DNA of 64,000 nt from an uncultured Candidatus Saccharibacteria bacterium. GTDB lineage: Bacteria; Patescibacteriota; Saccharimonadia; Saccharimonadales; Saccharimonadaceae. Under the pieces are notes generated by a model. The model did no database searches. It was not told where the DNA came from and was given only the letters and a program-made list of their open reading frames with translations. Each line of letters starts with the position of its first letter. Position 1 is the stretch's first letter. This document shows, one piece after another, positions 3,505-52,796 of the stretch. Both the position numbers and the translations under genes were made by a program. The stretch lies in assembly GCA_947087275.1 (NCBI GenBank), contig CAMUBZ010000003.1:9132-73131 (forward strand), given 5' to 3'.

Positions 3505-4866
3505 CTATTTGGCATATTGCCAAACTTGACCTTCAGGCGTATCCAGAACTTTGATATTTTGCATGATCAGTTGGTCACGCAATTCATCGGACCGAGCAAA
3601 ATCTTTGGCGGCACGGGCTTGAGCACGCTCTTCTAGAAGTGATATCTGCTCAGCGGTGATATTAGGAGAATCCTGAATTAAATTGAGGCCAAAGACTTCA
3701 TCAACTTGCTTCCAGAAATCCAGGCTACATTTTTCGGCTTGGTCGATGATTGCAAAGGCTTGAGAAGAATTAAGATTGTCATTTAGGGCAGCCTTGATAT
3801 TTGCTAGGACTTCTGCGCTGTCAATGGAATCGTGTTTTTGATAAGCGCGGGCAACTTGATTACGCCAACTGAGCCGCCGGCTACGTGCGGCATCTAGATC
3901 TTGCAAAGTAAAGTTGCGCTCGGATTGGTAATTCCCTTGCAGCACCCACATCTTGAAGTCCATCGGACTATAGCCTTTATCAACCAAATCTTGAATCGTA
4001 TAGCCGTTACCAAGCGACTTGGATATTTTTTCGCCATCGCTAGTAAGATGATTACAGTGCAGCCAATATCTAGACAATTGTTTGTCAAAGGCAGCCAAGG
4101 TCTGAGCGATTTCGTTAGTATGATGTACTGGAATATGGTCAATGCCGCCGGTGTGAATATCGATTGGCTCGCCAAGTTCGGTATGAATAATGGTAGAGCA
4201 TTCGAGATGCCAGCCAGGATAGCCAGGGCGATTAAGATAATCCCAGCGCATGGCATGTTTCTCGCCGGGTTGAATAAATTTCCAGACAGCAAAGTCGCTG
4301 ATGTTACGCTTCTCAGAAGAAAACTCCACGCGGGCGCCCGCTTGCAACTGGTCTAAATCTAGGCGAGCAAAATCAGCATAAGTCGGCAACTTACTGGTAT
4401 CAAAATAAATGCCATCGGAAGTCTCATAGGTATAACCATTCTCAATAAGTTTATTAACTAGCGCCTTATCCTCCTCAATATAATCGGTAGCCTTCGCGGT
4501 GACGTCAGGCGGAGTGAGGTTGAGAGCCTTATAATCCTGCACGAAAAGATTAGTGTAATATTCGGCGACTTCCCACACAGTTTTGCCACTTTGGCGGGCA
4601 CCCTTTTCTAATTTATCTTCGCCCTCATCACCATCAGACGTGAGATGGCCGACATCAGTCAAGTTGAGCACGCGATAAGGCGTATAGCCATTCAGCTTGA
4701 GTGTGCGGATCAGCAAGTCCCAGTAGATATAAGCAGCAAAATTGCCAATGTGTGGCGTACTATAGACGGTAGGCCCGCAAGTGTAAATCTTGACCTTGTT
4801 GGGGTCTTGTGGTCGGAATTCTTCAACTTTGCGCGTGAGCGTGTTGTAGAGTTTGATTTTGTTCAT
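3505..4866 (-). CDS. cysS: cysteine--tRNA ligase
   Basis: HIGH-type motif PHIGNFAAY and KMSKS-type motif KISKSLGN. Length is typical of class I CysRS. Confidence 0.93.
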   Translation of the reverse strand: MNKIKLYNTLTRKVEEFRPQDPNKVKIYTCGPTVYSTPHIGNFAAYIYWDLLIRTLKLNGYTPYRVLNLTDVGHLTSDGDEGEDKLEKGARQSGKTVWEVAEYYTNLFVQDYKALNLTPPDVTAKATDYIEEDKALVNKLIENGYTYETSDGIYFDTSKLPTYADFARLDLDQLQAGARVEFSSEKRNISDFAVWKFIQPGEKHAMRWDYLNRPGYPGWHLECSTIIHTELGEPIDIHTGGIDHIPVHHTNEIAQTLAAFDKQLSRYWLHCNHLTSDGEKISKSLGNGYTIQDLVDKGYSPMDFKMWVLQGNYQSERNFTLQDLDAARSRRLSWRNQVARAYQKHDSIDSAEVLANIKAALNDNLNSSQAFAIIDQAEKCSLDFWKQVDEVFGLNLIQDSPNITAEQISLLEERAQARAAKDFARSDELRDQLIMQNIKVLDTPEGQVWQYAK

Positions 4867-4867
4867 C

Positions 4868-5722
4868 TTAGAGTCCCTTTTCCCGTATAATACGCTTGAG
4901 TTCGATTAACATTTTGTTACGTTTTTGTGCAGAAACGTCATGATGCCCGATAACGCTCACAAAACGGACGTGAGGGTTATTTGTGGCAATCTTTTTGAGG
5001 TTAGAACGCATCACGAGCGGGTCAAAATGCCCATGAATAATCAACGTAGGGAGTTTAATTTTGGTGTAAGTTTTGTAATTATGTGAGTTGAGAATAATGT
5101 TATCCATTGAACGGTCAAAAGCCGGGGTTTTGATATATTGACTACTAAAACTGCTGAAGCGCTGCACAAAATTCGCTACTACCTCGATAGCGGGCTCATC
5201 CTTAGCCAGTTTATAAAGTGAGCCGTAGGATTTGGTGTAGACTTTGTCGGGGAGTTTAGCTAGTTCCTCAGACATCAAAACGGGAGGCGATACAAGAATT
5301 AGACCAGCAATGTCAAAGGCTGACTGAAAATTCACGGTAAAATCTGCTGCAATGAGTGAACCCATAGAATGTCCAACTAAGACTACTGGGCTCGTAATTT
5401 TGAGTTTTTTGAGAGAGTTCTCGAGGGCTTTTTCGTAATCAAGATAGTCATAATCTAGCCAATTAGATTGTAGTGACTTACCGAATCCTAACAAATCTAG
5501 TGCCACCATGCGCACGCCCTTGAGATCGGGGTTTGCCGAAAACTGGCGAATCGTGGTGCGCCAAGTCTCTGATGTCGCCGAAATGCCATGCAAAAAAACT
5601 ACCGTGAGACGAGGATGTTTGACTTTATTGTCGAGAGCAACTTTGAGGCGAATAGGGCGGCGCAACCAGCGGTGCCAGATACGCGTGCGCCAGTTGTAGA
5701 ACTTACTTAGCGCTCGTGGCAT
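4868..5722 (-). CDS. alpha/beta hydrolase fold protein
   Basis: Nucleophile elbow GHSMGS. Overall layout matches the alpha/beta hydrolase fold. Confidence 0.7.
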   Translation of the reverse strand: MPRALSKFYNWRTRIWHRWLRRPIRLKVALDNKVKHPRLTVVFLHGISATSETWRTTIRQFSANPDLKGVRMVALDLLGFGKSLQSNWLDYDYLDYEKALENSLKKLKITSPVVLVGHSMGSLIAADFTVNFQSAFDIAGLILVSPPVLMSEELAKLPDKVYTKSYGSLYKLAKDEPAIEVVANFVQRFSSFSSQYIKTPAFDRSMDNIILNSHNYKTYTKIKLPTLIIHGHFDPLVMRSNLKKIATNNPHVRFVSVIGHHDVSAQKRNKMLIELKRIIREKGL

Positions 5723-9756: not shown

Positions 9757-9987
9757 GTGCGCAGCGGGTATACCTATTTGCCTAATACTGCTGGTACATT
9801 TAGACTTGCGGCTAGTGTTGCAGAATACTGGTCATCGCGCGCATCCAGCACACGATTTGATGGAGTAAATGTATCTAGTGCTTACAAATTTGAGTTTAGT
9901 AGTATTATCAATCCTTCTAGTGGCCCAGATGCTAGAGCATATGCTTTCCCCCTCCGCTGCCTTAGTACTGTATTAGGTATGTAGGAG
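9757..9987 (+). repeat. orphan FISUMP/DUF1566-like C-terminal cassette, copy A
   Basis: Runs from GTGCGCAGCGG to CCTCCGCTGCCTTAGTACTGTATTAGGTATGTAGGAG. Open frame VRSGY...YWSSRA...AY...PLRCLSTVLGM*; no SD. Confidence 0.9.
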
Positions 9988-10075
9988 TATGAGAGAACAA
10001 CATGTAAGCATGTTTACATGTTGTTCCGAATCGACGCTCATACCAGACGACGTTAGTCGCCTGGCTATGTAGGAG
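9988..10075 (+). repeat. 3' add-on module (two hairpins) ending in a second TATGTAGGAG
   Basis: Hairpins at 9995-10026 and 10043-10064; direct repeat TATGTAGGAG at 9978-9987 and 10066-10075. Homologous modules follow copies C, F and H. Confidence 0.75.
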
Positions 10076-18787: not shown

Positions 18788-19000
18788 TTCCTACATACCT
18801 AATACAGTACTAAGGCAGCGGAGGGGGAGACTATTCCAACGATCATAAGCACTCTCAGGGTATGTTCCATTAGGGCTAAAACCCAGATTATAAGCGTGTG
18901 TGGTAGATGGATAAGCAGTTGATGCCCAGTATACTCCATAACCGCCTATATTCCTTAATCCACCATTATCGTTGTCTATGCCTATAAACCCGCTGCGCAC
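18788..19000 (-). repeat. orphan FISUMP/DUF1566-like C-terminal cassette, copy B
   Basis: Same conserved borders. Frame MRSGFIGIDN...YWASTAYPSTTHAYNL...PLRCLSTVLGM*. Confidence 0.9.
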
Positions 19001-19030: not shown

Positions 19031-19369
19031 ATGAGAATTTTACGAGGGTCAATTTCGAAAGATAGTTTAGCGAATGCAGCAGTGGTTTTTGATGACTCAA
19101 TGGTCAAAGGCGTAGTAGATGTAAAACGCGGACTGCTCGCGCTAGACGCTGAACTACATGCAGATTTGGAAAAGATACTTCTAGAGGATGGCTCGGCGCA
19201 AGATGATGTCTGGGGGATTAACCTCTGGTTTGAGGATGAGGGTGAGGATTTTGTGGAATTTGATTCGATGATTAACGTACGTCCGCGTCAAAACAACCGT
19301 AGTCGTAGCGTAGAGAACCCTGAATTACGGCAGCAAATTACGAAAGTCGTGCAAAAATGGATACAATAA
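19031..19369 (+). CDS. hypothetical protein
   Basis: 112-aa acidic ORF with protein-like composition. Family not recognised with confidence. Confidence 0.5.
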   Translation: MRILRGSISKDSLANAAVVFDDSMVKGVVDVKRGLLALDAELHADLEKILLEDGSAQDDVWGINLWFEDEGEDFVEFDSMINVRPRQNNRSRSVENPELRQQITKVVQKWIQ

Positions 19370-19698
19370 ATTGCCAACACCAGCGTCTTGCCGGTGGCGA
19401 CTGGGCCAAGTTGCCATTCTGTTTGCAAATGGGAAACGTGGGAAGCGAAGTTTCACGCTCACTAAAGTGGTTTGGTAAGAACGAAAAGCGTTTCAATTCG
19501 GCCTTTGACCGCGCCCTAGAACTCTTTGATTTAACAATAGAAGGTGCGCTTGGCTATGATGGACGGCTAAAAGAAGTTTGTCGAGCACGCGAGGAATTCT
19601 GCGACTATTTCTTAGGTAATAGTTGGGGTACCGACCCAGAAAAAATGATGCGTTACTACGATCAGTTTGCAATTTTAGGGCATAGTACCCAAACCTAG
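19357..19698 (+). CDS. hypothetical protein
   Basis: 113-aa ORF overlapping the previous gene by 13 nt (operon-like). Confidence 0.5.
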   Translation: MDTINCQHQRLAGGDWAKLPFCLQMGNVGSEVSRSLKWFGKNEKRFNSAFDRALELFDLTIEGALGYDGRLKEVCRAREEFCDYFLGNSWGTDPEKMMRYYDQFAILGHSTQT

Positions 19699-19710
19699 CA
19701 TTTTTTCAGA

Positions 19711-19739
19711 AATGTGCTACAATATTTGTAGAGCACATT
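19711..19739 (+). promoter_or_regulatory. TGCTACAAT extended -10 embedded in a 12-bp-arm palindrome
   Basis: AATGTGCTACAA-TAT-TTGTAGAGCACATT. It lies upstream of the SD and GTG start at 19778. Confidence 0.4.
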
Positions 19740-19777
19740 ACAATCAGTGCTTAATTTTGGGGTCAGGAGGGGTAAAC

Positions 19778-20335
19778 GTGGAAATTAGGCAACAAAAAAC
19801 GTCAAAAACTGTTAAAATCACCGAGTCGGAGCAAATTTTTCTGAATGTCATTTCCTATGGTGTAGGAATTATCACCGCTATCATTGCTTTGTTAGCATAT
19901 ACCATAGTCGATTTGATGGGCGGGGAATATTTCGAAGGTCGTTGTCATATGAAGGTCGCACTGATTATAGTCGTAATCCTTGTCTTCTATGGCATTCTTC
20001 AATACCCTGTCAAGATGATATTACGTCATTTGTTTCACATTGAAGAAATTGGAGACATAGACGTAGACGAATTCTCGCTTTGTTTTAATATTGTCTTGCC
20101 GCTGCTAGAGTATGCAGACCCATTTATTAGTTTTCCGCATTGGCTGGGCGTATTAATTCTTTGCAGCGACAGTGCTATTTGCATAGTAGTATCCATTTAC
20201 ATCGCCCAAATTGCAGCCTTTATTGGTCCAATTCTGTATACTATTATGACAATAATATTCTTGTGTAATTTTTTGGTTTTGCTCTACCTCGGGTTTGCAG
20301 GCGGCTTCCGTACTAATGTCGTAGTTAAAAAATAA
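19778..20335 (+). CDS. multi-pass membrane protein, hypothetical
   Basis: GTG start 8 nt after AGGAGG; 4-5 predicted TM helices. Confidence 0.55.
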   Translation: MEIRQQKTSKTVKITESEQIFLNVISYGVGIITAIIALLAYTIVDLMGGEYFEGRCHMKVALIIVVILVFYGILQYPVKMILRHLFHIEEIGDIDVDEFSLCFNIVLPLLEYADPFISFPHWLGVLILCSDSAICIVVSIYIAQIAAFIGPILYTIMTIIFLCNFLVLLYLGFAGGFRTNVVVKK

Positions 20336-20449: not shown

Positions 20450-20674
20450 GTGCGCAGCGGGCTCTTCACGCTTGCTACTACTGACGTCCTGAGATACGTT
20501 GCTACTGGTGGTTATGCATGGTCATCACGCAGCTCATCGACAAATCATTTTGGCACGGTTGTTCCAAGTGCTTACTATTTTGTTGTCAGCACGAGCAACA
20601 TGTCGTCGTATAGCGATCATCACTACTACGGCCTCCCCCTCCGCTGCCTTAGTACTGTATTAGGTATGTAGGAG
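20450..20674 (+). repeat. orphan FISUMP/DUF1566-like C-terminal cassette, copy C
   Basis: Conserved borders. Frame MRSGLFTLATT...YAWSSRSS...AYYF...PLRCLSTVLGM*. Confidence 0.9.
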
Positions 20675-20758
20675 GCGAATGAAGTAAAAAGTGCAAGCCC
20701 TTTTTACTTCTGAGCCGACGTCTATACCAGTCAACGTCAGTTGGCTGGTATGTAAGAG
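20675..20758 (+). repeat. 3' add-on module (two hairpins) ending in TATGTAAGAG
   Basis: Hairpins at 20681-20710 and 20727-20748. Near-identical to the module after copy H, except for an inverted hairpin core. Confidence 0.75.
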
Positions 20759-20770
20759 AGTATGAGTAGG

Positions 20771-29648: not shown

Positions 29649-29876
29649 GTGCGCAGCGGGATGATACCTCCAGACGCTGGTAGACTATGGCGTATTGGTC
29701 AGAATGGCTATAACTGGGCATTACGAGCAATGTCTATTCATACCGATGGTACAGGATATCTTAGCGCTTATGACCTAAAGATTGACGCTAATATAGTTTA
29801 TCCGTCAGAGGGGCCAAGTTATCGTTTCTACGGTCTCTCCCTCCGCTGCCTTAGTACTGTATTAGGTATGTAGGAG
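29649..29876 (+). repeat. orphan FISUMP/DUF1566-like C-terminal cassette, copy D
   Basis: Conserved borders. Frame VRSGMIPPDAG...YNWALRA...AYDL...LSLRCLSTVLGM*. Confidence 0.9.
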
Positions 29877-29959: not shown

Positions 29960-30361
29960 TTATTGAATGTCAATAATTTGACCACGACGATTTATAAACT
30001 TAATTTGTTTGATTTCCTTGATTGCAGTAAAACACACTCTTAGCTTTTTCTCAATTGCTTTGTCTGGGATATGTTTCATGCGCCGTGAGTCAAAGATAAT
30101 AGAATCCGATTGCCACTTACCTCGTTTGAGATTCCTTTCTACCGTTTTTAAGTTGCTCGCTCTTGGTGACTTCATTTCCCAAACGACACCATCAACTAAA
30201 CAATCCGCCGTTTGTCTTCCCTTTTTATCTATTGTTTTTAAGAACTCCACTACATGGCCGTACTTGATTAGAACTTTAGCTGTTTCCTGTTCATGAGGCC
30301 AAACGTCGACTCCGACAGGAATGATGATTTTGCCCTGTTTTTCAGTTTTAGGTTTCCTCAT
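29960..30361 (-). CDS. PD-(D/E)xK nuclease-like small protein (restriction-endonuclease fold)
   Basis: Motif E...AD-x10-WEMK, 133 aa. Paralogs at 33726-34127 and 44263-44649, with a conserved leader TTATGCTAGGCTCAGGAG-ATG. Confidence 0.55.
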   Translation of the reverse strand: MRKPKTEKQGKIIIPVGVDVWPHEQETAKVLIKYGHVVEFLKTIDKKGRQTADCLVDGVVWEMKSPRASNLKTVERNLKRGKWQSDSIIFDSRRMKHIPDKAIEKKLRVCFTAIKEIKQIKFINRRGQIIDIQ

Positions 30362-30440: not shown

Positions 30441-30653
30441 CTCCTACATACCTAATACAGTACTAAGGCAGCGGAGGGGGAAAGCGCCCCAACGATGATC
30501 TGGAATATCTGACGGGTTGACTGTTATATTAAAATAGAGGTCATACGCATCACTAACGGATGCAGCTGTGCGTGATGACCACCAGAGACTACCATAGCCG
30601 GCATTCCGGAAAGTGCCAGTAGTATTCGCCGGATTAACATTCCCGCTGCGCAC
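30441..30653 (-). repeat. orphan FISUMP/DUF1566-like C-terminal cassette, copy E
   Basis: Conserved borders. Frame VRSGNVNPANTTGTFRNAGYGSLWWSSR...AYDL...FPLRCLSTVLGM*. Confidence 0.9.
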
Positions 30654-43914: not shown

Positions 43915-44004
43915 TTCCTACATAGCCACATCACTACGTTCTGTGGTATGAGCGTCGTCTCGAAAGCAAAAGAACAAGTTCACTTGTTCTTTTGCTTTAC
44001 TCAA
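43915..44004 (-). repeat. 3' add-on module (two hairpins) following copy F
   Basis: Hairpins at 43963-43998 and 43926-43946. Ends in TATGTAGGAA (43915-43924 on the plus strand). Confidence 0.7.
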
Positions 44005-44214
44005 CTCCTACATACCTAATACAGTACTAAGGCAGCGGAGGGAGTAACCGTAAGAGAGGAATCGCGGGCTATTGGATGGCTGCACAGTAAGATTTCCTAT
44101 TACAAGATTATATGCATTCTGCGCGCTTTCTAGCCATGAAGACCACCAACATCCGCTAAAAACTGTGCCCTTTAAAGTGCTAGCAGTTCTTAAATCAATA
44201 TACCCGCTGCGCAC
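44005..44214 (-). repeat. orphan FISUMP/DUF1566-like C-terminal cassette, copy F
   Basis: Conserved borders. Frame MRSGYIDLRTAS...CWWSSW...AYNL...YSLRCLSTVLGM*. Confidence 0.9.
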
Positions 44215-44262
44215 GAAGTAAAAATGTTGTACATTTTACAACATATATGCTAAAGTAGGGTA

Positions 44263-44649
44263 GTGAAGTTTAATCTCATCATTCCTACTGGCCTCAAGCC
44301 AAAGCCGACGAAGGACGAAATGGCTGTTGCTGAGGTGCTATCGAACTATTTTCATAGCGACATCAAATTTGTTGCTCGCGGCATTTCGCATACTCCAGAT
44401 ATTTTTATTATACGGCTTAATCAATACTGGGAAATCAAAAATATACGTGGCAATGGGCGACGTACTATTGCAAATGTACTACGAGAAGCCTAATATCAAG
44501 CAGAGAATCTTGTTATCTCACTAACGCGTACATCAATGAGTGCGCAACAGGCCTCAGGTAGAATTCGACAGTACATCAGAGAAGGACGCACGCGTATCAA
44601 ACGAATAGTGATTATTACAAAAGCCAAAAAAGTGCTTGTCATAAAATAG
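44263..44649 (+). pseudogene. PD-(D/E)xK nuclease-like paralog interrupted by one in-frame TAA (44491-44493)
   Basis: Motif TPD-x11-WEIK. The same frame stays open after the TAA and still aligns to the paralogs (QAENLVISLTR versus QSDSIIFDSRR). Confidence 0.6.
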
Positions 44650-44735
44650 AACTTGTGATATTATAAGGACAATAAGAGACGGATGCGATACTGAACTGAA
44701 TCAATAGACCGTCTCTTTTTATATAAAACTTTTTC

Positions 44736-44960
44736 GTGCGCAGCGGGTATATCTTCCCAACTGTTGAGAGTGGTCACAATGCGGGTTCGCGAGCTATGGG
44801 CGCCACTGGAGACTATTGGACATCGCGAGCATCTTCTACATCACCTTCTAATGCCTATTGGCTTGAAATTACTACAACAGTGCTTCCGTCACGCACTCCG
44901 CTCAATCGCTACAATAGTTTCCCCCTCCGCTGCCTTAGTACTGTATTAGGTATGTAGGAG
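44736..44960 (+). repeat. orphan FISUMP/DUF1566-like C-terminal cassette, copy G
   Basis: Conserved borders. Frame MRSGYIFPTVES...YWTSRASS...AYWL...FPLRCLSTVLGM*. Confidence 0.9.
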
Positions 44961-44995
44961 ATGAGAGGGGGAATAAAAATTGTGAGAAAAAGTCC

Positions 44996-45121
44996 TTGCT
45001 ATTTTAAAAAGCATAAGTTATACTAAGGACAGTTCGGAAGAACATAAGGCTAACTGCGAGCCAACGATAAGTTGAGAGCTTATATGTTCAAAAAGTCGCC
45101 CTGCGTTGAAGGCGATTTTTT
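44996..45121 (+). ncRNA. orphan promoter-hairpin-terminator unit; candidate small RNA
   Basis: TTGCTA-17-TATACT (44996-45024), an imperfect hairpin at 45040-45090, and a terminator stem 45095-45115 with TTTTTT. No ORF of 60 aa or more. Confidence 0.35.
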
Positions 45122-45141
45122 GGTTTTATGCTTAATTTTTC

Positions 45142-45351
45142 GTGCGCAGCGGGTACGTCTACTTGCCTAATACTAGGACTCATGATGGCGCTGGCCAATA
45201 TGGATATTGGCGAACATCTCGTGCCTATTCATCAACTACACAGGCTTACCGCTTAGGGTTTCATGCTAGCATCGTATCACCATCTTTGAGTGATCCACGC
45301 TCCAACGCTTTCCCCCTCCGCTGCCTTAGTACTGTATTAGGTATGTAGGAG
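45142..45351 (+). repeat. orphan FISUMP/DUF1566-like C-terminal cassette, copy H
   Basis: Conserved borders. Frame MRSGYVYLPNT...YWRTSRAYSSTTQAYRL...FPLRCLSTVLGM*. Confidence 0.9.
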
Positions 45352-45436
45352 GCGAATGAAGTAAAAAGGGCTTGCACTTTTTACTTCTGAGCCGACGTCC
45401 ATACCAGTCAACGTTAGTTGACTGGCTATGTAGGAG
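45352..45436 (+). repeat. 3' add-on module (two hairpins) ending in a second TATGTAGGAG
   Basis: Hairpins at 45358-45387 and 45404-45425. Direct repeat TATGTAGGAG at 45342-45351 and 45427-45436. Confidence 0.75.
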
Positions 45437-50220: not shown

Positions 50221-50445
50221 GTGCGCAGCGGAGGCTTTGCCTTAACGGTTGCGAATGGCATCCTCAGACGTGCTGGCCAAGGTGGTATTTATTGGTCAAA
50301 TCAGGCTGGAATATACATATCTGATATATCGGCTCCTGCATATTATCTCGATTTAAATGCTACCAGTGTGGCTTCATCCGGGCTAAATAGTCGTTACCAT
50401 GGTTTCCCCCTCCGCTGCCTTAGTACTGTATTAGGTATGTAGGAG
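50221..50445 (+). repeat. orphan FISUMP/DUF1566-like C-terminal cassette, copy I
   Basis: Conserved borders. Frame MRSGGFALTVAN...IYWSNQ...AYYL...FPLRCLSTVLGM*. Confidence 0.9.
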
Positions 50446-51535: not shown

Positions 51536-51751
51536 GTGCGCAGCGGGTACTTCAGTTTGGCTACTACTGCTGGCGTCCTCAGTCACACTAGTGCAGCTGG
51601 CGACTGGTGGTCATCGCGAGCGTCTTCGTCGGCTGCTTATGGGTACCACTCGAACTTCGGTGCTTCAAGCGTGGCTCCGTCGGCCGACTCTGGTAATCGT
51701 TACGTCGGTCGTCCCCTCCGCTGCCTTAGTACTGTATTAGGTATGTAGGAG
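51536..51751 (+). repeat. orphan FISUMP/DUF1566-like C-terminal cassette, copy J
   Basis: Conserved borders. Frame VRSGYFSLATTAG...DWWSSRASS...RPLRCLSTVLGM*. Confidence 0.9.
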
Positions 51752-51981
51752 TACGAAATGATAAAATCAAGTTGTGGATACACCTCCATGGGTACCAAAA
51801 GCAGCCCGAGCTCACTCCTCCGCTAGCTGGCGGTCCTCGAGAAAAGATCGTGAAGTTCCCTTCTGAGTTCTAAGAGAAACATTGAGGCTTGATGATTTTT
51901 GGCTACGGCCAGAAAGACAATATATGAACTTCTAACCATTCCGGTCACTGACTGCGATTTTTTCGTTGTTTGAGTAGAGGC

Positions 51982-52168
51982 GTGCGCAGCGGGTATGTCA
52001 ATCCGGCTAACTCGGCTGGTACCTTTAGGAACGCTGGCAACAACGGCAACTGGTGGGCGTCGCGAGCCTACTCGTCCACTACCCACGCGTACAACCTCAA
52101 CGTTTATACGACGGTGAATCCGTCAAACAACAGCAATCGTTACGCCGGTTTCTCCCTCCGCTGCCTTA
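51982..52168 (+). repeat. FISUMP/DUF1566-like cassette, copy K, 3'-truncated after CCGCTGCCTTA
   Basis: Frame VRSGYVNPANSAGTFRNAGNNGNWWASRAYSSTTHAYNL...FSLRCL. Homology ends at 52168 and unrelated sequence with a promoter follows. Confidence 0.85.
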
Positions 52169-52198
52169 TTTTTGCCGCGGGGGTGCCGATCTTTGCCA

Positions 52199-52227
52199 TT
52201 GACAAATTACATTATCCGTGGTACAAT
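52199..52227 (+). promoter_or_regulatory. consensus promoter TTGACA-17-TACAAT with TGn
   Basis: -35 at 52199-52204 and -10 at 52222-52227. It begins 31 nt after the copy K breakpoint. Confidence 0.6.
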
Positions 52228-52292
52228 AGAGAGATGAGGGGTGCACATTTCGGTTTTGACTATGCTTGGTGTGCTCCCAGAAGGAGGAAAAA

Positions 52293-52796
52293 ATGACAGA
52301 AAAATCTGAAAAAACCGTACAATATCGTTTCTCGTCCACTAAAATTCTGAAAGTTTTTACATTTCTCTCAGCCTTGATACTTATCAACCTGGTAGCTGCG
52401 ATTGTCGTTTTGATTCGTGCCTGGCCATGTGGCATTACCAAAGAGACCTGCGCCGTGGTAGGCATTACTTGGTTGCCCGCAATCATCGCATTGATTGGTG
52501 GAAAGATGTGGTGGAATTTTGCGCGTTCTCTGGAAGGAACAAAAGGATTATGTAATATCAGGTCGATTGGGTCCACTCTTCTGATGACCGGAGCACTAGC
52601 CTTTGTTAATGCAGTAATATACTGGCAAACAGATGACCTTAGGATAATCTTAAATAATATTTTGTTTGTTTATCTACTGTTTGGGTCGAACGTGGTATTC
52701 ACGATTCTTGAAGTCTATTCAAATTATCGCCATGAATATCCGCAACGCACAATCGATTTCCTGACATATTGCAATCTGACGAGAATTATTAAGTAA
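52293..52796 (+). CDS. multi-pass membrane protein, paralog of 29018-29518
   Basis: ATG follows AGGAGG. Shares N- and C-terminal motifs with the 29018 gene; 4 TM helices. Confidence 0.6.
   Translation: MTEKSEKTVQYRFSSTKILKVFTFLSALILINLVAAIVVLIRAWPCGITKETCAVVGITWLPAIIALIGGKMWWNFARSLEGTKGLCNIRSIGSTLLMTGALAFVNAVIYWQTDDLRIILNNILFVYLLFGSNVVFTILEVYSNYRHEYPQRTIDFLTYCNLTRIIK

Follow-up and report, generated by a model that had tools for sequence, protein, structure and literature searches.

Cassettes with invariant borders in a Candidatus Saccharibacteria genome are probable targets of a diversity-generating retroelement

Introduction

To our knowledge, diversity-generating retroelements (DGRs) are the only natural system in which defined protein-coding DNA is rewritten by reverse transcription. 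Here we describe a stretch of 64,000 nt from the genome of an uncultured Candidatus Saccharibacteria bacterium (contig CAMUBZ010000003.1; hereafter the window), which carries ten short intergenic cassettes with invariant borders and strongly diverged interiors, two of them within positions 44736-45351, and an eleventh, related copy, K. The cassettes are probably DGR targets, i.e. of the variable repeat (VR) type, and copy K is one template repeat (TR) of the system. Saccharibacteria are obligate episymbionts that rely on the surface recognition of their hosts.

A DGR target needs a GC-rich block shared with the TR, followed by about 21 bp of target-specific sequence, the initiation of mutagenic homing (IMH) element, and a nearby hairpin; at its 5' end at least 8 bp of homology to the TR are required and the sequence upstream of the VR is dispensable (PMC3240598). 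In DGR RNAs the segments flanking the TR pair with each other, and a conserved duplex termed 'cPRT Stop' is found (10.1101/2023.10.23.563531). DGRs with several targets, several templates and components acting in trans are already known (PMC6642488, PMC10907252): the cellular DGR of Thiohalocapsa PB-PSB1 combines several or remote targets with trans-acting components (PMC10907252), and a Stenotrophomonas DGR has two TRs and six VRs in DUF1566 proteins (PMC6642488). Moreover, a DGR clade specific to the candidate phyla radiation (CPR)/Patescibacteria has been described (PMC8144416). Our literature search returned nothing specific on DGRs in Saccharibacteria or on orphan VRs, and we found neither VR-only cassettes truncated at the 5' end and present in dozens nor the template RNA layout reported below described there.

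Results

Invariant borders enclose saturated interiors

The cassettes are 209-230 nt long, seven of them being on the plus and three on the minus strand, which corresponds to a density of about one per 6 kb. A search for the 3' border, CCTCCGCTGCCTTAGTACTGTATTAGGTATGTAGGA (36-mer), tolerating up to three mismatches, gave ten matches in the window, all of them without any mismatch, and none in shuffled sequence. The 5' border, GTGCGCAGCGG (11-mer), has 11 exact matches, as compared to a chance expectation of 1.5, a number reached in no shuffle, and is preceded by a C at position -1 in 10 of the 11 copies. The original prediction, which had proposed invariant borders from the same counts, thus holds in this respect; its assignment of the 36-mer to the last nine codons has to be corrected, as the 36-mer comprises 1 nt, ten codons, the TAG stop and 2 further nt. 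Copy K keeps the 5' 11-mer and the initial 14 nt of the 36-mer and is divergent beyond. The proposed inverted repeat is real, too: GCAGCGG at the 5' end and CCGCTGC at the 3' end are reverse complements, so that every cassette is bounded by an invariant 7-nt inverted repeat.

All copies have a single open frame, the remaining two frames are rich in stops, and every length preserves the frame. Pairwise identity of the window interiors is only 42-61% (median 49%), with 13 nt as the longest exact block common to any two of them. The median proportion of synonymous differences (pS) is 0.70, i.e. the synonymous sites are saturated as had been claimed, and that of nonsynonymous differences (pN) is 0.47, resulting in a pN/pS of 0.67. 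In the block of 15 codons shared by K and B we find the same 11 synonymous differences, two replacements and two identical codons that had been listed earlier. Among 956 comparisons with an identical amino acid, 435 also have an identical codon, which is only slightly above the 343 expected from independent draws. These data support the notion that the interior types are old, diverged paralogues still encoding the same protein motif; the purifying selection at the protein level that had been postulated along with it is weak (pN/pS about 0.67).

Profiles built from the interiors only retrieve the same 11 copies in the window, and none with degraded borders; therefore, the contrast between borders and interiors is real and not an ascertainment artefact. 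The same holds for 157 copies detected by their interiors in three other genomes, 145 of which have the exact 5' 11-mer and 147 of which have the 3' 25-mer with at most two mismatches, i.e. border divergence is not proportional to interior divergence. About 3% of the interior-detected copies in these genomes have a 3' border that is hit by clustered substitutions, shortened by 9 nt or lost altogether (e.g. L063 (-) at ~1004, L032 (-) at ~4454 and L027 (-) at ~5142); none of this kind is present in the window.

The encoded peptide follows the pattern VRSG...WSSR...AY.L...PS...LRCLSTVLGM. A scan of the cassette proteins against NCBIfam gave no match, and a PDB profile search with the cassette alignment returned nothing meaningful. 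In relatives a longer target form of 117-124 aa (GWMLPT...) adjoins gyrA and the reverse transcriptase (RT) gene described below. Among the cassettes listed, 166 of 167 are in frame and free of stops, compared with about 14 expected to be stop-free in shuffles.

The borders resemble DGR target sites

The 36-mer can be divided into two parts. Its initial 14 nt, CCTCCGCTGCCTTA, form a GC-rich block common to K and the cassettes, whereas its final 22 nt, GTACTGTATTAGGTATGTAGGA, are target-specific and IMH-like, K carrying TTTTTGCCGCGG... in their place. At the ends of the copies, identity between K and the cassettes is confined to the 5' 11-mer and this 14-nt block, and the sequence 5' of the 11-mer is unrelated. 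Thus, the window cassettes have both a GC-rich element shared with K and ~21 bp that differ from it, and the 5' identity, with 11 exact nt in 11 copies, exceeds the 8 bp that are needed. The arrangement is that of the prototype DGR of Bordetella phage BPP-1, where a 3' GC-rich block shared by TR and VR is followed by about 21-22 bp of target-specific sequence, and where a short 5' identity is enough for integration and the sequence upstream of the VR is dispensable. A hairpin just downstream, another feature of BPP-1, is found in some of the targets: A, C, F and H have a clear one (z -2.8 to -6.6) that starts 7-9 nt past the border, and D and I a marginal one.

Judged by this comparison, the border anatomy fits the published requirements for DGR targets, which supports the view, already put forward in general terms by the original prediction, that the borders are constrained as nucleic acid, namely as recognition and homology elements that bound a replaced segment.

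In each of A, C, F and H the 3' border is followed by an element of ~88 nt with two hairpins, whose stems both carry compensatory changes when the four copies are compared. This element may represent an insertion with a direct repeat (TATGTAGGAG) on either side, or else an extended target hairpin.

Copy K and its template module

Copy K, the sole template available in the window, contains nine AAC and 22% A, is the copy richest in AAC and is Asn-rich; the template of BPP-1 is rich in AAC codons, too. A leader of about 150-190 nt is conserved 5' of the template copies in 25 modules and is missing from the cassettes. Twelve of its base pairs show compensatory changes across the 25 modules, and it contains an outer stem, GAAGUUC/GAACUUC, and a C(UACG)G hairpin. 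At the other end, a tail, (T)nGCCGCGG..GGTGCCGATCTT, replaces the last 22 nt of the 36-mer in K, in L021, a template of a related genome, and in their counterparts, and it follows the template copies, in conserved form, at six of an initial seven loci and at about 30 loci from metagenomes. Because leader and tail are common to L021, K and their counterparts and are missing from the cassettes, K is, judging from the sequence, a template repeat.

CGATCTTT in the tail is complementary to AAAGATCG in the leader, and as both are conserved and invariant there is no covariation signal. The predicted leader:tail pairing resembles the 'cPRT Stop' duplex of DGR RNAs and would correspond to the pairing of the template RNA flanks that BPP-1 needs. 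In contrast to BPP-1, where a 140-nt Spacer lies downstream of the TR, the large structured RNA is located upstream of the TR here, and the downstream part is a tail of ~26 nt. The leader additionally holds CACUCCUCCGCU (51813-51824), which is similar to CCCUCCGCUGCC of the 3' border, both being complementary to GCAGCGG of the 5' border. Thus, the 5' border could pair either with the leader or with the 3' border, all these sequences being invariant.

Templates of the K type are present in related strains (P0130, P0131). A protein search for a current VR of K returned K-type templates only, and a query in which every A of K was masked as N had no JGI match, K itself likewise being unmatched, so that this query is uninformative. 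The copies at some template loci are poor in adenine (13-17% A, 1-5 AAC; L001 ~3960-4180 (-), L007, L054), and the cassettes of the respective genome do not match them, as though the template had been overwritten or had decayed; a frameshift is present in one template (L029 ~4858-5040).

Relatives have a reverse transcriptase and adenine-only pairs

Relatives of the window genome possess an RT, templates, often several per genome, template-target pairs that differ at adenines only, and an adenine signature in truncated cassettes. When reference genomes were searched for the 3' border, we found at least 165 distinct cassettes with the same borders in three Candidatus Saccharibacteria metagenome-assembled genomes (MAGs), beside which the window genome is a fourth organism. 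L009 in one of them (1501-2781) encodes an RT of 426 aa with the motifs IGNLTSQ...YVDD, which matches RVT_1 at E = 9e-10. Its best PDB match, 8ub7_A, an RT of 328 aa (E = 4e-22; next match 5e-5), is followed by Drt, retron and group II RTs at a wide distance; 8ub7 is presumably the Bordetella bRT. The RT gene adjoins gyrA and an open reading frame (ORF) of 117 aa that bears a cassette, and relatives of the RT number in the thousands, some of them being named as from Saccharibacteria. Directly 5' of the RT gene, and overlapping it, lies an ORF of 340 aa (L009 552-1574 (+)), a candidate accessory protein in place of Avd.

Between template L021 and the L009 cassette, both from the same genome, 0 of 158 non-A positions and 11 of 41 A positions are mismatched. 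This adenine-only pattern, known from BPP-1, is the defining DGR relationship. Similar values are obtained for the pairs L107/L007 (0/168 non-A, 13/40 A) and L109/L068 (1/158 non-A, 11/41 A), and for L109 vs the truncated orphan L113 (2/158 non-A, 12/41 A). Template modules can be identified by the leader signature CACTCCTCCGC-N18-26-AAGATCGTGAA and the tail GCCGCGG...GGTGCCGATCTT. A scan with the leader signature revealed that single genomes carry many template modules of different types, at least six modules on one 225-kb contig, with the same borders. With the 29 templates collected, four cassettes have an adenine-only template, one of them being the truncated orphan. In 31 truncated orphans with a template within 15%, the mismatch rate by template base is 38.1% for A, 9.5% for G, 9.2% for T and 10.7% for C, and in the best-covered genome 16 of 33 cassettes are within 15% of a template.

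Turnover of the interiors within fixed borders

Orthologous sites whose flanks have 85-98% identity contain interiors with an identity of only 48-56%. For example, L002+ and L091+ share 97.8% of their flanks and 51% of their interiors, which also differ in length. L001 and L006 have identical flanks and interiors with 79.5% identity; in one head-to-head pair one cassette is unchanged and its partner wholly replaced. Since orthologous sites with similar flanks hold divergent interiors, the cassettes themselves turn over quickly, and the old paralogy inferred originally for the cassettes belongs mainly to the set of several templates. Cassettes of low divergence are mosaics of template-like and foreign blocks, and the gyrA-adjacent VR of L006 is a mosaic of two template types. 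Copy A differs from its orthologue L101 (flanks 99.5% identical) by seven substitutions and a 15-nt in-frame deletion, all within the interior. This deletion is located at window positions 9775-9789, and three further changes are found at 9989-9994, starting 3 nt past the 36-mer, the borders being untouched.

Discussion

A proposed DGR with dispersed components

Based on these findings we propose that the template RNA, i.e. leader, TR and tail, would be reverse-transcribed into cDNA by an RT whose gene lies outside the window and which misreads adenines, and that the cDNA would replace the stretch of the target between two fixed points. The 3' point would be the GC-rich block CCTCCGCTGCCTTA followed by the target-only GTACTGTATTAGGTATGTAGGA, the equivalent of the IMH, which would set the direction of transfer; the 5' point would be GTGCGCAGCGG, the first 11 nt of template/target identity, which would suffice to join the other end of the cDNA. 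The borders would then be invariant because all templates and targets need them and because homing rewrites the parts shared with the template, and the interiors would be divergent because the lineage keeps several deeply diverged templates. The template interiors, in turn, may be old paralogues, all of them coding for one lectin-like C-terminus, and further differences may stem from adenine mutagenesis, from homing that is partial or mosaic, and from ordinary drift. We infer that the window genome has an RT and further templates matching its ten cassettes, and that these are still targeted; DGR activity in this genome is unproven.

Several observations weigh against this interpretation. No ORF with a YxDD motif is present in the 64-kb window, nor is gyrA, the neighbour of the RT gene in the relatives, and no Avd homologue was found, the 340-aa ORF having no match in Pfam, NCBIfam or PDB. 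Four of the ten cassettes (B, E, G and J) have no downstream hairpin. Cassettes A-J differ from K at 27-42% of the non-A positions, and by indels, so that no adenine-only derivative of K is among them; compared to the 29 templates, their best values are about 28-41%, none being close, and most cassettes of the other genomes have no close template either (median 29%). Furthermore, copy A is identical in five metagenome samples (ERZ13657767, -770, -779, -780 and -781), i.e. orphan cassettes are static within a strain and A is not visibly hypervariable now. The peptide covers only the last third of the lectin-like Fib_succ_major/Lcl_C domain, with all matches below threshold, and the AlphaFold model of the long-form target has a mean confidence (pLDDT) of 46, which is unusable for a fold assignment. 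Finally, a Shine-Dalgarno-like motif is present in 0 of 11 cassettes vs 23 of 38 window genes, no window cassette belongs to a long ORF or forms the 3' end of a full-length target gene, and the cassette frames of the relatives extend at most 78 codons upstream, among the matches listed.

Two simpler DGR schemes can be rejected. A single-template DGR with K templating all cassettes is incompatible with the non-A mismatch of 27-42%, and repeated self-templated adenine mutagenesis does not agree with cassettes that are not depleted of adenine as compared to the templates (about 19-20% A) and that differ in G, C and T, too.

In BPP-1 the RT, the template and the target are grouped in one cassette, whereas here they are scattered over the chromosome; in addition, an Avd homologue is not recognised, the templates are many, and the targets, most of which lie outside full-length genes, number in the dozens. 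The multi-target DGRs of cellular genomes resemble the present system in having one RT acting in trans on remote targets, more than one template, targets of the DUF1566/FISUMP lectin-like class and, in part, a host that belongs to the CPR. They differ, however, in scale, as we find ten targets in 64 kb here and at least 60 per genome as well as at least six templates on one contig in the relatives. Moreover, the targets here consist of the VR alone, truncated at the 5' end of the template, without ribosome-binding site and often head-to-head, most of them have no close template, and a single expressed VR appears to receive sequence from different templates, yielding mosaics. Dozens of cassettes per small genome, their truncation at the template 5' end without a ribosome-binding site and their frames, which nevertheless are open, are the unusual features of this system.

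If our interpretation is correct, a genome of roughly 1 Mb, as is typical of the group, devotes a noticeable part of its DNA to a single repeat family that is defined only by DGR cis-elements, which raises the question of the role of VR-only cassettes without translation signals. The cassettes would also constitute a natural experiment on the minimal target, 11 nt plus 36 nt with nothing needed upstream, and the template RNA would have an architecture differing from the Bordetella model. The 47 nt of border sequence would be an obvious portable targeting tag for engineered DGRs.

Silent cassettes, relics and other explanations

The VR-only cassettes might serve as a silent library, its exchange partners being the templates or an expressed VR. 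Taken as an explanation of the whole family, this idea leads to a reservoir as in the pilS/pilE or vls systems, where promoterless donors would swap segments with the expressed gene beside gyrA or with the templates, through gene conversion or RT template switching, and where the borders would be homology anchors. We regard such a reservoir as possible, if tentative; it can coexist with a DGR as the function of the orphan cassettes. Like Neisseria pilE/pilS and Borrelia vlsE, the family comprises many promoterless, truncated copies with an open frame, has conserved borders around variable interiors and gives rise to mosaic products at one expressed locus: 166 of the 167 cassettes listed are in frame and stop-free, yet have no start signal, and both the cassettes and the gyrA-adjacent VR of L006 combine different template types. 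Near-identical interiors without adenine bias occur at non-orthologous loci (e.g. L044/L088, 99.5%), a type lost at one locus is kept at another (L002+ vs L017), and the copies at template loci vary in type between genomes, some being adenine-poor as if overwritten. However, pilE/pilS and vlsE use DNA recombination and have no RT, template RNA or adenine bias, whereas the lineage studied here has a DGR RT and its traceable changes are adenine-specific; as the identifiable donors show adenine-specific mismatches, an RT is indicated rather than DNA recombination. In addition, a 5' border of 11 nt is too short for efficient RecA-type recombination, the boundaries between borders and interiors are sharp and not graded, and the blocks in common are without clear polarity (ten 3'-anchored, seven 5'-anchored and 14 internal). 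Because no exact block longer than 13 nt is common to the window interiors, there has been no recent exchange among them.

Both ideas might be combined in a networked DGR, a hybrid of DGR and pilS-like system with one RT, many template modules having their own RNAs, shared border-defined sites and an in-frame, promoterless library. The library would swap segments with the templates and with a single expressed lectin-like gene, and adenine mutagenesis would be combined with cassette-type combinatorial variation in the reduced genome of an episymbiont. We consider this scheme speculative and, on balance, doubtful.

Alternatively, the cassettes may be functionless relics of ectopic retrotransposition, i.e. 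cDNAs of DGR or VR RNAs inserted at non-cognate sites, which start at the cDNA end (the template 5' end) and have invariant borders as they are young or are purged once damaged. The truncation at the template 5' boundary in all copies, their intergenic location on both strands beside housekeeping genes, the existence of a few decayed copies in the other genomes (about 3%) and the static nature of the orphans within a strain agree with this explanation. Nevertheless, we regard it as unlikely: since the interiors are saturated and 470 border positions in the window are unchanged, the copies cannot be both old and unconstrained, and neutral copies would have gained stops or frameshifts, which are absent from 166 of the 167 cassettes listed. 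Moreover, the cassettes bear a target-type tail that K-type templates do not encode, and at fixed loci the interiors have been exchanged with the borders left intact.

It is very unlikely that the cassettes are independent small genes of ~70 aa starting at the border GTG, with borders kept for translation or for the C-terminus. Each of them does begin with an in-frame GTG and end in a conserved stop, and gene callers predict ORFs of 84-124 aa at the cassettes. The difference in Shine-Dalgarno-like motifs between cassettes and real genes (0/11 vs 23/38), a peptide that represents just the last third of a lectin-like domain, and the invariance of the synonymous sites in the ten border codons and of the 2 nt past the stop all speak against translation units of this kind. 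As the synonymous sites of the borders are invariant and those of the interiors saturated, selection at the protein level cannot explain the borders.

We give hardly any credence to a site-specific recombinase system (a shufflon or an invertible segment) or a transposon resembling a miniature inverted-repeat transposable element (MITE), with the 36-mers of head-to-head pairs as terminal inverted repeats. Neighbouring cassettes are most commonly arranged head-to-head (40 of 61 pairs in relatives, among the matches listed), so that the 36-mers often form long inverted repeats around a short spacer or cargo genes, and each cassette has its 7-nt inverted repeat, but many cassettes are single with this 7-nt repeat only, the arms of the pairs are unrelated in sequence, and neither a recombinase or transposase (~45 window ORFs scanned) nor target-site duplications were seen. 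In shufflons the crossover sites are located at the 5' ends, outside the invertible segments, which is opposite to the long repeats at the outer 3' ends here, and a MITE would not account for the very uneven divergence (borders 100%, interiors about 49% identical). The adenine-specific pattern and the RT account for the data without a recombinase. We found no evidence for the binding sites of a recombinase or nuclease that the original prediction had considered, nor for gene conversion of the GENECONV type; instead, the borders agree with what DGR retrohoming requires.

A group II intron boundary (GTGCG start) or spliceosome-like sites (ttttcgtgcgCAG|...|GTATGT) can be dismissed in view of the bacterial context, the coding interior, the unrelated upstream sequence and the lack of an Rfam match, and integron attC sites or an IS200/IS605-type element have no supporting features.

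Genomic context

The cassettes are located between housekeeping genes, namely those for EF-G, rpoB, rpoC, S12, S7, GAPDH, trigger factor, LeuRS and GatA/B (Table 1). No tRNA or tmRNA was found in the window, and Rfam searches of the whole window at gathering thresholds and of 51700-52300 at E <= 5 gave no match.

Table 1. Cassettes, template module and associated elements in the window
Feature	Position	Strand	Remarks
Cassette A	9757..9986	+	VR-type, 5'-truncated; exact 11-mer and 36-mer, open frame
Two-hairpin element after A	9987..10075	+	ends in second TATGTAGGAG
Cassette B	18789..19000	-	VR-type; exact borders, open frame; head-to-head with C
Cassette C	20450..20673	+	VR-type; exact borders; hairpin downstream, z = -3.5
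Cassette D	29649..29875	+	VR-type; exact borders; tail-to-tail with E around CdiA_C-like ORF
Cassette E	30442..30653	-	VR-type; exact borders; without downstream hairpin
Cassette F	44006..44214	-	VR-type; exact borders; hairpin downstream, z = -6.2
Cassette G	44736..44959	+	VR-type; exact borders; without downstream hairpin; first copy within 44736-45351
Cassette H	45142..45350	+	VR-type; exact borders; hairpin downstream, z = -2.8; second copy within 44736-45351
Equivalent two-hairpin elements	~20674-20765, 43915-44005, 45351-45436	+, -, +	after C, F, H
Cassette I	50221..50444	+	VR-type; exact borders
Cassette J	51536..51750	+	VR-type; exact borders; immediately 5' of template module
Template leader, structured RNA	51770..51981	+	conserved core ~51786-51933, then variable linker
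Copy K, template repeat (TR)	51982..52168	+	most AAC-rich copy
Template-specific tail TTTTTGCCGCGGGGGTGCCGATCTTT	52169..52194	+	occupies position of IMH-like element

The spacers of head-to-head pairs (L031, L052, L064 and others) have a minimum length of 16-18 nt, and those of 100-130 nt contain two hairpins flanking a conserved AACAGGGGTAGAG motif. In the window, the F/G pair (44006-44959) encloses a spacer of 521 nt and the B/C pair brackets a unit of three genes (19031-20335), namely a DUF5674 gene and two unknown genes. The sequence TTATTATAGCATA, found 5' of many cassettes, was considered as part of the element and rejected, as it corresponds, on the opposite strand, to the extended -10 (TGCTATAAT) of the neighbouring gene, which is divergently oriented.

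A small ORF of the CdiA_C type, the C-terminal part of a contact-dependent inhibition toxin, is located between D and E (29960-30361 (-)), and another CdiA_C small ORF is found in a relative between the RT gene and the adenine-only VR (L009 2859-3407 (-)). Directly after the tail of K lies a near-consensus promoter, TTGACA-N17-TACAAT (52200-52296), which precedes an ORF of 167 aa resembling a membrane protein (52293-52796) without family match.

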